Assembly (NCBI GenBank): GCA_000004985.1
Contig: GG738853.1
Source: Naegleria gruberi
Taxonomy: Eukaryota
Strand: one strand, 5' to 3'
Length of the DNA: 64,000 bases
Shown in pieces: positions 53,283 through 59,376 of this stretch. Both the position numbers and the translations under genes were made by a program. A model generated the notes under the pieces. That model made no database searches, was not told the DNA's origin, and worked only from the letters and a program-made list of their open reading frames with translations. Position 1 is the stretch's first letter. Each line of letters begins with the position of its first letter.

Positions 53283-53354
53283 GGGACCATGGTCTAGTGG
53301 TATGATTCTCGCTTTGGGTGCGAGAGGCCGTGGGTTCGATTCCCACTGGTCCCC
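53283..53354 (+). tRNA. tRNA-Pro (anticodon TGG)
   Basis: GGGACCATGGTCTAGTGGTATGATTCTCGCTTTGGGTGCGAGAGGCCGTGGGTTCGATTCCCACTGGTCCC. The 7-bp acceptor stem pairs GGGACCA with TGGTCCC. The anticodon loop TTTGGGT gives UGG. The T-loop is GGTTCGATTCC, and it closely matches eukaryotic tRNA-Pro. A TTTCCTTTT run follows the gene. Confidence 0.92.
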
Positions 53355-53807: not shown

Positions 53808-53888
53808 TGCAGAAGGTGGGATTTGAACCCACGAAGCTTGCGCAGTAGAACTTGAGTCTACCCCCTTTGACCACTCGGGAACCCCTGC
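53808..53888 (-). tRNA. tRNA-Leu (anticodon CAA), class II with long variable arm
   Basis: Reverse complement reads GCAGGGGTTCCCGAGTGGTCAAAGGGGGTAGACTCAAGTTCTACTGCGCAAGCTTCGTGGGTTCAAATCCCACCTTCTGC. The anticodon stem GTAGA/TCTAC encloses the loop CTCAAGT, giving CAA. The T-loop is GGTTCAAATCC. The acceptor stem has two G-U pairs. A T-run follows the 3' end. Confidence 0.88.
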
Positions 53889-54591
53889 TTCACATTTAGA
53901 ATAACAACTGGTTTTTCACATTGAAATAGACTAAAAACTCATTTATCTTATTTTTTCTAATTAGAAAGGTTTTCAGTGCCTTCAACTGGAAACATGCTTC
54001 GCTGTAGGTTTCCTCGTTCATAGATGATTGCTGCATTCCTTACCAGCCATGGTTTGTGAATGGGGGATTTGTGAACATGCAGATTGGTACCTTAAACTTT
54101 TTATTAATTAATAGAAAAATCACGCCTTTTAGGCAAAATGAAAGATTCCAACCTTTTATAATCACTATTAACATTCTGTAGATTGTGTAGAGAGCATGAT
54201 AATTCAACATTTAGTTATCTTCATGCACTGTATTGGAGTATTAAAGAATAACTTACTGAACCAACAATCAATAGATTCGTTACTCACTGCTCATACATAA
54301 AGACTGTAGCAAGATTGTCACCATATTCCTAGCAGGCTTCCTGTCCATTAAAACTAAAAGAATATCAACAACTACTGTTTTCAAAATGATATTGGTTCAG
54401 ATTATCGTTTCCTTATTCAATATTAAGTTTTTCTTAAAATTGCTACTTCCAAATCATGCTACATGCCTCTTTTCGATTAAGCCAGTACTATTTCTTATTA
54501 AGCCACTCAACCAAATGCAACCTTTTAACCATTTGGTTTATCAATCATGATTTATTTGTTATTAAAATGCTTATTTTCTTAGTGATGTCAA

Positions 54592-55410
54592 TTATTTCAT
54601 TTCACTTATGTATTTAACTCCTTCATCACCACTTTGACTGTAACCAATATCAAGTGATGTTAATTGCTTCATTTTGCTAATGTATTTGTATCCTTCACCA
54701 CTAATTTCATTGGCAGAAATATCAAGTGATGTTAATTGTTTCATTTCACTTATGTATTTGGCTCCTTTATCACCAATTTGATTATTAGCAATATCGAGTG
54801 ATGTTAATTGTTTCATTTCACTTATGAATTTAACTCCTTCATCACCACTTTGATTGCTACCAATATTAAGTGATGTTAACTGTTTCATTTCACTTATGTA
54901 TTTAGCTCCTTCACCACTAATTTCATTGGCAGAAATATCAAGTGATGTTAATTGTTTCATTTCACTTATGTATTTGGCTCCTTCATCACCAATTTGGATT
55001 ATCACCAATATCGAGTGAGGTTAATTGTTTCATTTCACTTATGTATTTAACTCCTTTATCACCAATTTCATTGTAACCAATATTAAGCGATATCAATTGT
55101 TTCATTTCACTTATATATTTGGCTTCTTCATCACTAATTCGATTTACACCAATATTAAGTGATGTTAATTGTTTCATTTCACTTAGGTATTTGACACCTT
55201 CATTGCTAATTTCATTGTCATAAATATTGAGTGATGTTAATTGTTTCATTTCACTTATGTATTTGGCTCCTTTATCACCAATTTCATTTTCAGAAATGTT
55301 AAGTGATAGTAATTGTTTCATTTCACTTATATATTTAACTCCTTCTACACAAATTTGATTATTAGTAATATTGAGTGATGTTAATTGTTTCATTTCACTT
55401 ATAAATTTGG
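54592..55410. repeat. 72-bp tandem repeat array (~11 units) encoding the LRR units
   Basis: The motif ttaattgtttcatttcacttatgtatttggctcc...tcaccaattt recurs with a 72-bp period (for example ttcacttatg at 54601, 54673, 54745 ...) and with very high unit identity. Confidence 0.85.
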
Positions 55411-55777
55411 TCTGGTTGGTTTTTACTAAAGAGGCAAGCAACCAACGATAAACTTTAACCTTAACAATACTATTCAGGAATTGACTTTTCATGAATAATT
55501 CAACTCGTTTCTCTGTAAATTTTTTTTTAAATTGAATACCAAGTTTTGAGCGTTCCTTGATCACATTAAAGAATTGTTTTGAAATTAAAGAACAATTATT
55601 TAAAATAAACCACGAATCATCAAGCATGGAAATTATTTCAAAACAAACATCATCTGAAAATATTTCTTGTTGAAGTTTCACACTTTTTGATTTCTCTTCC
55701 ATAATATTGTTAATGAATATTTCCTCCGAATTAATGAATTGATGATTTTCTAAATCTTGTCGATTTCGTTTTCTCAT
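54592..55777 (-). pseudogene. F-box-like / LRR protein gene carrying a frameshift in its repeat array
   Basis: Track ORFs 54986..55777 and 54592..55008 overlap in frames that differ by +1. ATG 55777 has the A-run context. The N-terminus has an F-box-like motif (DDVCFEIISMLDDSWFILNNCSLISKQFF), followed by 24-aa LRRs (ISEMKQLTSLNIxxNEIxDxGxKY). At ~55000 the unit reads aatccaaatt-ggtgat where the other units read gaaattagtggtgaa, a 2-nt loss. This is either a genuine pseudogene or an assembly error in the repeat. Confidence 0.65.
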
Positions 55778-55872: not shown

Positions 55873-55990
55873 GGCTACGGCCATATCACGATGAATGCAC
55901 CTCATCCCGTCCGATTTGAGAAGTTAAGCATCGTAGAGCCACATCAGTACTGAGGTTGGAGACAACTTGGGAACCTGTGGTGCTGTAGTC
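55873..55990 (+). rRNA. 5S ribosomal RNA gene (copy 1)
   Basis: GGCTACGGCCATATCACGATGAATGCACC...GGGAACCTGTGGTGCTGTAGTC (118 nt) matches the eukaryotic 5S consensus at the conserved helices, including the internal Pol III control region around GAAGTTAAGC. The Pol III terminator TTTTT follows immediately. Confidence 0.93.
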
Positions 55991-56245
55991 TTTTTATCTT
56001 TATGGAGAGAATATTAGTTTGTAATTTTCAGAATAACATGATGGTGTTAATATTTCCTTTATTTTTAAATATTAAGGAAATGCCCATGAAAATACCATGA
56101 TTCATGGACAAGGATTTGATCTTGTGCTCTGGTCAACGGATTTGAAGCATGACTGAAATTAGAAAAGACTTTAAGGGTAACCTGTTCATGCTTAATAATA
56201 AAAAACGAAATCAATTAATGGACATGAATGGGAAACCTGGCATTC

Positions 56246-57179
56246 TCAAAAGATGCTCTTTCTATGAATGATATTGAATCCACTCTCTTCATATTCCTCT
56301 AAGGTTATACGCATCGATGGGAAGGTTGATAATTGGGAGAAAATACTACCACCAAGCCACGCAGTGTACTTTCTATCTGGTGGTGCTATTATTCGAATGT
56401 TCATTGAAGAATGAGATAATTCCCTCAATTCATTATCCAATCGTTCTACTATTCCATTGAACAATGTCGATCCTCCTGAAAGAATAATATTCGAATACAA
56501 TTCCTTTCTAATATCTAAATCCGACTTTCTAATAGAAGTGAAAATATTTTCATGAATTCCACCAACTTCCATTCCAATAAGATTTGGTTGAAATAATATC
56601 TCACTAGTTTTGTATCTTTCACTTCCAAGTGCAATTATATTTCCATCCGGTAATTCATATGAAATTTCTGATATTGTTTCTTCCAAAAAATTACTAGCAA
56701 CACAACCAGCGAAGCCTGGACCGAGGGGAAACCCTTGACCCGGGACGAGCCAGCTGTTTTTCAATATTGATTACCCGCATTAAGCGGGAAACCCTCGCAA
56801 GAGGAACCCCATACCTCAGAGACCCAAACGATTCATTCGTTTAGGCTCGAATCGAGTTCATAATGGCAAACGGATGGATAGCCAGTAGGTGGTGCAAACC
56901 AACGAACGCTTAATTAAATATATAATCCCATATCTTTTCCATGTGATCAAAGTCAGTAATCAAACCACGATCAATTGGATATTTGAAAACATTCACACCT
57001 CTCCTTCCCAATGCAATATCTCCAACGAATGTGTCAATGGAGCCCATTCCAACCATGATGGTGGATACTTTTTGTCATCCAGTAACTGTGGGAAAGACCA
57101 CACATGGAGCATCATCAATAAAACCAGCTTTCATGAGAGAGGAACCATTATCAATGATGAGAGGTGGATGTTCAGACAT
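56246..57179 (-). pseudogene. Actin pseudogene (nonsense codon; central third replaced by GC-rich block)
   Basis: Minus-strand translation from ATG 57179 reads MSEHPPLIIDNGSSLMKAGFIDDAPCVVFPTVTG*QKVSTIMVGMGSIDTFVGDIALGRRGVNVFKYPIDRGLITDFDHMEKIWDYIFN*. This aligns with actin residues ~1-92. TGA replaces the Arg of the VGRPRH segment with no change in length. The C-terminal ORF 56246..~56700 reads SYELPDGNIIALGSERYKTSEILFQPNLIGMEVGGIHE...IIAPPDRKYTAWLGGSIFSQLSTFPSMRITLEEYEESGFNIIHRKSIF*, matching actin ~239-375. About 145 residues (actin 93-238) are missing. They are replaced by ~200 bp at 56700..56905 of ~50-60% GC. Confidence 0.8.
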
Positions 57180-57301: not shown

Positions 57302-57374
57302 CGCCCACCGTGGGGGTCGAACCCACGACCACAAGGTTAAGAGCCTTGCGCTCTACCGACTGAGCTAGACGGGC
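57302..57374 (-). tRNA. tRNA-Lys (anticodon CTT)
   Basis: Reverse complement reads GCCCGTCTAGCTCAGTCGGTAGAGCGCAAGGCTCTTAACCTTGTGGTCGTGGGTTCGACCCCCACGGTGGGCG. The anticodon loop CTCTTAA gives CUU. It is nearly identical to metazoan and fungal tRNA-Lys(CUU). A T-rich run follows the 3' end. Confidence 0.92.
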
Positions 57375-59073: not shown

Positions 59074-59191
59074 GGCTACGGCCATATCACGATGAATGCA
59101 CCTCATCCCGTCCGATTTGAGAAGTTAAGCATCGTCGAGCCACATCAGTACTGAGGTTGGAGACAACTTGGGAACCTGTGGTGCTGTAGTC
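59074..59191 (+). rRNA. 5S ribosomal RNA gene (copy 2)
   Basis: 118 nt, identical to copy 1 except for one substitution (atcgtCgagcc here versus atcgtAgagcc). It has the same downstream TTTTTATCTTTAT, but different upstream flanks. Confidence 0.93.
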
Positions 59192-59376
59192 TTTTTATCT
59201 TTATCTTTTGTTGACCGATTTCCATCTCAGCACTTTCAATATTTCCTTCCTCAATCCTTTGTAATGCTTGGGTTTTGTGGGTTTGAGCTTTCAAAGTCAA
59301 TTTTGTAATCGCACTTAAAGTTCACAAATGTTTTGAATGTTGAAGTTTGACAACACACAAAGCCAAGTACTAAAAA

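Follow-up and report, generated by a model that had tools for sequence, protein, structure and literature searches.

A chromosomal actin-like gene of Naegleria gruberi has lost the central part of its coding sequence, and in its place stands a short block of GC-rich DNA that folds into hairpins. Where did this block come from, and how did it come to lie within an actin gene? The window (the whole stretch of DNA that was analysed, 64,000 nt in length) consists of N at positions 1-33348, more than half of its length, and the analysable sequence is that of positions 33349-64000, about 30.6 kb with a GC content of 34.4%. A preliminary description made from the letters of the window had read the locus as a pseudogene and had listed captured organellar or foreign DNA, a degenerate SINE and a fragment of a structured RNA gene as candidate origins of the block.

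The actin-like pseudogene and its lesions

The locus is a pseudogene of a divergent actin-like paralogue of N. gruberi. Its recognisable actin portions, and the nonsense codon in the first of them, are placed as follows, with P0001 and P0002 denoting the two paralogues introduced below.

57179-56913, minus strand: N-terminal part of the pseudogene, with its ATG at 57179; equivalent to P0001 aa 1-92, the last residues being ...EKIWDYIFN
57077-57075, minus strand: in-frame TGA, placed by the codon listing and the paralogue alignments
56707-56246, minus strand: C-terminal part of the pseudogene; equivalent to P0002 aa 217-368 plus a stop codon at 56248-56246

When the window was searched by tblastn, human beta-actin aa 8-90 was matched at 57161-56916 (frame -3, 51% identity) and aa 237-374 at 56668-56255 (frame -1, 56% identity); the two matches (E = 2e-51 and 3e-23) are co-linear, lie on one strand and flank the block on either side. 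With human beta-actin and the N. gruberi paralogues as queries, the segments run from 57179 to 56913 in frame -3 and from 56707 to 56249 in frame -1. These searches confirm the earlier claim of two co-linear actin portions on the minus strand. They also agree with it in giving the N-terminal part as aa 1-92, and correct it in the C-terminal part, where homology begins at about aa 217 and not at aa 239.

The closest relatives were found by a search of a protein collection, and are two near-full-length N. gruberi paralogues, NAEGRDRAFT_44350 (P0001, 345 aa, 88% identity) and NAEGRDRAFT_29917 (P0002, 368 aa, 76% identity); the N. gruberi actins matched in the protein search carry the Pfam domain PF00022. 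By tblastn, the N-terminal part has 79% identity to P0001 aa 1-92 and 72% to P0002 aa 4-90, and the C-terminal part has 77% to P0002 aa 217-366 (equivalent to 56707-56258) and 88% to P0001 aa 221-345. The C-terminal part opens with the motif GCVASNFLEE, as against GYVASNFVEE in the paralogue, and from EETISE... onward it is 100% identical to P0003, which in the NCBI annotation is a 'predicted protein, partial' of N. gruberi.

Between the two parts, no actin core was found in any of the six frames by tblastn with human beta-actin, P0001, P0002 and P0119. An inverted or scrambled actin core within the block was also considered and rejected, as six-frame tblastn with P0001, P0002 and P0119 gave no significant similarity. 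Since the match of the C-terminal part sets in at about aa 217, the missing core amounts to aa 93-216, or ~124 codons and ~372 nt by paralogue alignment; the absence of the centre had been correctly recognised, and its size is reduced from the ~440 nt first proposed. The N- and C-terminal parts are in addition offset by 1 nt in frame. The TGA aligns with Arg36 of P0001 (TVTGRQKVST there, TVTG-stop-QKVST here), which corresponds to the first Arg of VGRPRH in beta-actin. An in-frame TGA at this arginine position had been reported as a CGA to TGA change: the codon and its position stand, and its ancestry may equally have been AGA, since the gene uses both of these Arg codons and P0002 has Gln at the site.

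The actin frame is thus disabled three times over, by the TGA, by the disappearance of aa 93-216 from all six frames and by the 1-nt offset, and is left without a full-length product. The pseudogene reading, which had been based on the missing central domain and the nonsense codon at the Arg position, is therefore upheld. Both halves remain open apart from the single TGA, which indicates that the pseudogene is young. P0001 itself was observed to be without 23 residues (SNF...GSE) straight after 'TGCVA', around aa 216-221, at a place equivalent to about 56695-56624 in the window and adjoining the position of the left junction of the block. This gap could be a predicted intron that masks a lesion, or it could be a true deletion, and this actin subfamily may be undergoing wider decay.

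The surroundings of the locus contain several small RNA genes.

55873-55991, plus strand: 5S rRNA gene (Rfam)
59074-59192, plus strand: 5S rRNA gene (Rfam)
57302-57374, minus strand: tRNA-Lys(CTT) gene (Rfam/ARAGORN)
53283-53354, plus strand: tRNA-Pro(TGG) gene (Rfam/ARAGORN)
53808-53888, minus strand: tRNA-Leu(CAA) gene (Rfam/ARAGORN)

The 5S genes are 3201 bp apart, each within a 153-nt repeat of which the copies are 95% identical, and together with the tRNA genes they make up a small Pol III cluster around the pseudogene. Adjoining one 5S gene is a 263-aa ORF (54986-55777, minus strand), in which 24-residue leucine-rich repeats (ISEMKQLTSLNI...) are encoded by 72-nt units; ten such units, 60-83% identical, stand in tandem at 54509-55457.

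The GC-rich block is a piece of Naegleria rDNA spacer

The block is 206 nt in length with a GC content of 52%, and is the most GC-rich 200-nt stretch of positions 33349-64000, standing about 4 sd above the mean (34.4%, sd 4.3%). The GC-rich character given to it in the preliminary description is borne out; its limits, which had been placed at 56700..56905, are moved to 56706-56911. Three hairpins could be located in it.

56774-56788, plus strand: hairpin CCCGC-AUUAA-GCGGG, one of several spacer hairpins
about 56720-56737, plus strand: GAAA-capped hairpin of the minimum free energy (MFE) fold
about 56791-56802, plus strand: GCAA-capped hairpin of the MFE fold

The first of these is the perfect hairpin (CCCGC-ATTAA-GCGGG in the DNA) to which attention had already been drawn. 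The repeated word GGGAAACCC was likewise found, at 56726 and 56786, as was the ORF that reads through the block as junk (MKNSWLVPGQGFPLGPGFAGCVAS...), which has a TTG start. Folding of the block and a comparison with Rfam had both been put forward as checks. The fold revealed a modest excess of stability, with z-scores of -3.0 on the plus strand and -2.1 on the minus strand, and the plus-strand MFE fold contains three GNRA-capped stems (GAAA, GCAA and GCAA), a count that 6 of 20000 shuffles reach; the three stems suggest a structured RNA in the plus sense. No Rfam family was found in the block, either by a scan of the window at the gathering thresholds or by a scan of 56600-57000 on both strands at E <= 10, in which a match to snR39 (E = 2.7) was judged to be spurious.

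A number of other identities could be set aside. A spliceosomal intron is rejected: on the gene strand the block starts with TAAGCG and lacks GT...AG, and its removal would bring aa 92 and aa 217 together in different frames. Nor could an intron restore a full actin, as 124 codons are absent, and the earlier verdict that an intron is impossible is shared here. The B-box-like GATTCGAGCC is not part of a tRNA-like element or SINE, for ARAGORN detects no tRNA within it or around it in the block, and the block is single copy in the window, where no second copy was found. An origin from bacteria, plasmids or E. coli was rejected too, there being no E. coli match and only chance plasmid matches of about 40 bits. 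A 23-mer match to L009, a Thermodesulfobacteriota metagenome-assembled genome, is also due to chance, as it does not extend past the seed.

The source was recognised through environmental DNA. The exact 21-mer GCGGGAAACCCTCGCAAGAGG from the block is present in eight metagenome contigs, and blastn covers the whole block with identities of 99% to L005 and L006, 93-95% to L001, L002 and L003, and 85-86% to L004, L007 and L008. The identical run is unbroken over the full length of the block in L006, and L005 is likewise 100% identical.

56706-56911, plus strand (rRNA sense; antisense to actin): captured rDNA fragment, 206/206 nt identical to L006 749-954

These contigs are eukaryotic rDNA units, in which Rfam identifies SSU, 5.8S and LSU rRNA genes. 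In six of these eight contigs Rfam places the SSU rRNA on the strand of the block, with its start exactly 50 nt beyond it; L003 and L005, the remaining two, end 11 nt before the 18S start. Counted from the 5' end of 18S, the block thus spans -255 to -50, and from this position and its conservation it is presumed to lie in the 5' external transcribed spacer (5'ETS). All eight environmental copies (8/8) having an rDNA context, and the window holding one copy, a dispersed repeat is rejected. The 14.4-kb contig L005 matches the window over the block and nowhere else.

Naegleria-genus ITS primers match the 3' end of 18S and the 5' end of 28S perfectly in L004, L005, L007 and L008, which are all four of the contigs that span the ITS. 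A GIR1 branching (lariat-capping) ribozyme, which scores about 202 bits, is found in the SSU gene of L001 (1326-1534), L002 (8337-8533) and L005 (14046-14242), and is the mark of a twin-ribozyme group I intron. On these grounds the contigs are placed in the genus Naegleria. The block is, in short, a 206-nt piece of the spacer that lies upstream of 18S in the Naegleria rDNA unit. Two of the origins listed at the outset, capture of foreign or organellar DNA and a fragment of a structured RNA gene, are combined in this answer, and the SINE is dropped.

Several further features of the environmental units were observed. The SSU genes of L004, L007 and L008 are ~2.02 kb in length and uninterrupted. 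L005 is an apparent near-complete circular unit of 14.4 kb, which breaks off within the 5' part of 18S, just before the group I intron. Over 400 nt of SSU and group I intron, L005 (14035-14434) and L002 (8145-8544) are 100% identical, yet they are ~6% apart in the spacer upstream of 18S, a discordance that points to a mixture of strains, or to chimeric contigs, among the environmental sequences. In the spacer, conservation across species starts abruptly near -255 to -245 of 18S (for example at about L006 745, and also in L002 and L007), and the region upstream of that point is variable, CAGCC-rich and made up of hairpin-forming repeats. The conserved ~250 nt, with its GNRA-capped stems, may be a functional domain for pre-rRNA processing.

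The structure of the block was also considered in the light of these relatives. RNAalifold over the rDNA contigs gave 69 pairs, nearly all of them invariant and one with a compensatory change; as the stems are kept almost wholly by invariance, they are a plausible pre-rRNA spacer structure that covariation leaves unproven. The block's hairpins and GNRA loops, like its high GC content, are best read as inherited from the pre-rRNA spacer and not as having evolved at the actin locus. It might still be proposed that the block is a functional element in its own right, either as a self-standing gene for a structured non-coding RNA or by regulating the processing of pre-rRNA in antisense, as part of the pseudogene transcript, and its three GNRA-capped plus-strand hairpins, fold z-scores and Pol III neighbours (tRNA-Lys and 5S) could be cited to that effect. 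Descent from the rDNA spacer, however, explains all of the structure, and there is no Rfam family to which the block belongs. No promoter of its own was identified in the block, the plus-strand T5 run at 56756-56760 could terminate Pol III, and a single chromosomal copy would be negligible beside some 4000 plasmid copies; we regard such a function as extremely improbable.

The probable donor plasmid and a proposed route into the gene

In Naegleria, rDNA has been found only on a circular extrachromosomal element (CERE) of ~14 kb, which is nucleolar and present at about 3000-5000 copies per cell, and it has been stated that there are 'no rRNA genes in the nuclear DNA' (PMC5805870, PMC10586121, PMC11008152). 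Since no chromosomal rDNA is reported in Naegleria, the donor must be the plasmid, and unequal exchange within an rDNA array offers no explanation. The earlier remark that nothing else in the window accounts for the block also holds, the donor lying outside the chromosomes. The element of N. gruberi EGB is 14,007 bp in length, with an rDNA region of 5,855 bp. By its published length this region appears too short to hold a 1.3-kb SSU intron, so that the intron-bearing L005 would come from a close relative and not from NEG-M itself. We infer that the donor was the CERE of the cell or strain in which the insertion took place, the perfect match being known from environmental contigs.

In the literature searched, including a term search of the Naegleria pangenome paper, no report of a CERE-derived insertion in Naegleria chromosomes was found. 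Whether this is the first documented case of CERE sequence integrated in a Naegleria chromosome is, in our estimation, a matter of even odds. If it is, the nucleolar plasmid leaks into chromosomes via break repair, against the textbook absence of rDNA from nuclear DNA, and CERE-derived insertions could act as dated fossils of the evolution of this element.

The two ends of the insert differ in character.

56694-56709, no strand assigned: left junction, with CCAG microhomology at 56706-56709 and a 12-nt homeologous patch at 56694-56705
56912, no strand assigned: right junction, where one A separates the final rDNA base (56911) from AAT (N92, 56913-56915)

At the left junction, identity to rDNA starts at 56706, and the 4 nt CCAG (56706-56709) fit both the rDNA and actin Thr-Gly codons, the latter being deduced from the residues of the paralogues. 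In the patch alongside (56694-56705, actin GCVAS codons) 9 of 12 nt match the rDNA, with a binomial P of 4e-4 at p = 0.25 and of 6e-3 at p = 0.35; that the patch stems from actin is backed by the paralogue residues GCVA and VASNF. The left join was evidently formed where the two sequences chanced to resemble each other, as is indicated by the CCAG and the 9/12 homeology. The right junction is blunt, with a microhomology of 0-1 nt when the window was compared base by base with L006. Neither a target-site duplication nor terminal repeats nor poly(A) accompany the insert, and its flanks are free of inverted and direct repeats. It is bordered by the actin codons N92 and G217, the bases past it on either side are actin coding sequence, and ~372 nt of target are lost between them.

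These features point to fragment capture at a break, which we infer to have left a scar without function. In the sequence of events proposed, a double-strand break or collapsed fork would have arisen inside the chromosomal actin-like gene and would have been mended by end joining, at the cost of ~372 nt of the coding region (aa 93-216). A 206-nt fragment of CERE spacer (-255 to -50) would have been taken up as filler in the antisense orientation to actin, its left end joined through the 4-nt microhomology within the short homeologous patch and its right end joined bluntly, and the TGA would be a separate disabling mutation. That a plasmid-spacer fragment was captured by end joining at a break in a recently duplicated actin paralogue, as a functionless scar, is given a probability of roughly 85%. 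Over its 206 nt the insert shows 0 differences, although the spacer is 5-15% divergent between Naegleria lineages, and this argues for a recent event. A precedent exists in yeast, where breaks capture pieces of mtDNA (22-492 bp), Ty cDNA, rDNA and 2-micron DNA, largely by NHEJ (PMC11372161).

Replication could have produced a similar outcome. In a template switch of the MMBIR/FoSTeS type, a stalled or broken fork would prime on the plasmid at CCAG, copy 206 nt and return ~372 nt further along the gene, so that a single step would give both the deletion and the templated insertion without need of a free DNA fragment. Deletion and insertion are indeed co-linear, and the left junction, with its 16-nt homeologous patch and 4-nt perfect microhomology, suits synthesis primed by annealing. 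The 0-1 nt of microhomology at the right junction would, however, be unusual for a second switch, and comparable insertions in yeast are Pol32-independent and NHEJ-dependent, although this does not settle the matter (PMC11372161). We consider a template switch unlikely, if a serious candidate.

RNA could also have been the intermediate. An excised 5'ETS fragment would have been reverse-transcribed or have served as repair template; its 5' end would be set by the start of transcription or by an early cleavage, and its 3' end by an A0-like site some 50 nt ahead of 18S. The left end of the block (-255) does lie within about 10 nt of the point where conservation of the spacer begins, the whole fragment is inside the presumed transcribed spacer, and uptake of Ty cDNA at breaks is known in yeast (PMC11372161). 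Against this, the insert carries neither poly(A) nor another hallmark of retroposition, microhomology explains the left end equally well, and the ~4000 copies of the plasmid suffice as a source of donor DNA. In a bolder version, the insert may be a reverse-transcribed 5'ETS processing fragment, the ends of which mark the pre-rRNA start and the A0-like site; no mapped Naegleria pre-rRNA start was found in the literature searched. On balance, capture by way of RNA appears improbable.

The junctions also bear on the possibility that a chimeric clone or a misjoin placed rDNA in a chromosomal scaffold. At ~4000 copies per cell CERE is a large share of total DNA, its reads are plentiful in shotgun libraries, and a very long stretch of N adjoins the sequence analysed. 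The 206-nt insert nevertheless has parts of one gene on either side of it, co-oriented and in their proper order, and two chimeric joins would thus be needed; the microhomology and homeology of the left junction are typical of repair in the cell, and one chimeric clone would presumably lose to a multi-fold consensus. An artefact of assembly or cloning, of which a misassembly join had been named as a concern at the outset, is therefore very improbable.

Capture of plasmid spacer at a break accounts for an odd GC-rich, hairpin-rich island without recourse to a new RNA gene or a mobile element. The rule that Naegleria chromosomes contain no rDNA is qualified by it: they have no rRNA genes, yet they have at least one 206-nt spacer fragment. 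By this reading, a nucleolar plasmid of ~4000 copies is able to supply the filler for breaks in chromosomes, in the way that mtDNA gives rise to nuclear mitochondrial insertions (NUMTs), and the junctions would offer a first sequence-level view of end-joining repair in a heterolobosean. For annotators, it follows that CERE-derived sequence should be masked and that the locus should be labelled a pseudogene, not a 'partial predicted protein'.

Comparison with known systems

As a gene remnant, the locus resembles the unprocessed (duplicated) pseudogenes of cytoskeletal genes, in that it is a recent paralogue (88% and 76% amino acid identity to two near-full-length N. gruberi genes) and combines a nonsense codon with an internal deletion and a frame shift. 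It departs from them in that the deletion is filled with foreign DNA and is no plain loss. As a piece of rDNA, it is comparable to the 'orphons' or dispersed rDNA fragments, being an isolated and non-functional piece of an rRNA unit away from the rDNA. Orphons, however, are known from hosts with chromosomal rDNA arrays, whereas Naegleria is reported to be without chromosomal rDNA. Dictyostelium and Tetrahymena have extrachromosomal rDNA alongside chromosomal rDNA-derived sequence, in the form of complete master copies or chromosome-end structures that maintain the rDNA; the Naegleria insert is unlike these, as it consists of just 206 nt of spacer within a dead gene.

The closest parallels are found in NUMTs, their plastid counterparts (NUPTs) and the fragments captured at yeast breaks (PMC11372161). 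In common with these, a short fragment of high-copy extrachromosomal DNA has been inserted, the 206 nt falling within the range of 22-492 bp, and the junctions have 0-4 nt of microhomology together with loss of target sequence, and bear no target-site duplication or transposon hallmark. The donor here differs in being a circular nucleolar rDNA plasmid and not an organelle genome or a retroelement, and one of the two junctions lies in an unusually long homeologous patch. Unlike the yeast captures, moreover, the Naegleria insert arose in a natural genome, where no break was induced, and has become fixed in the equivalent of a germline.
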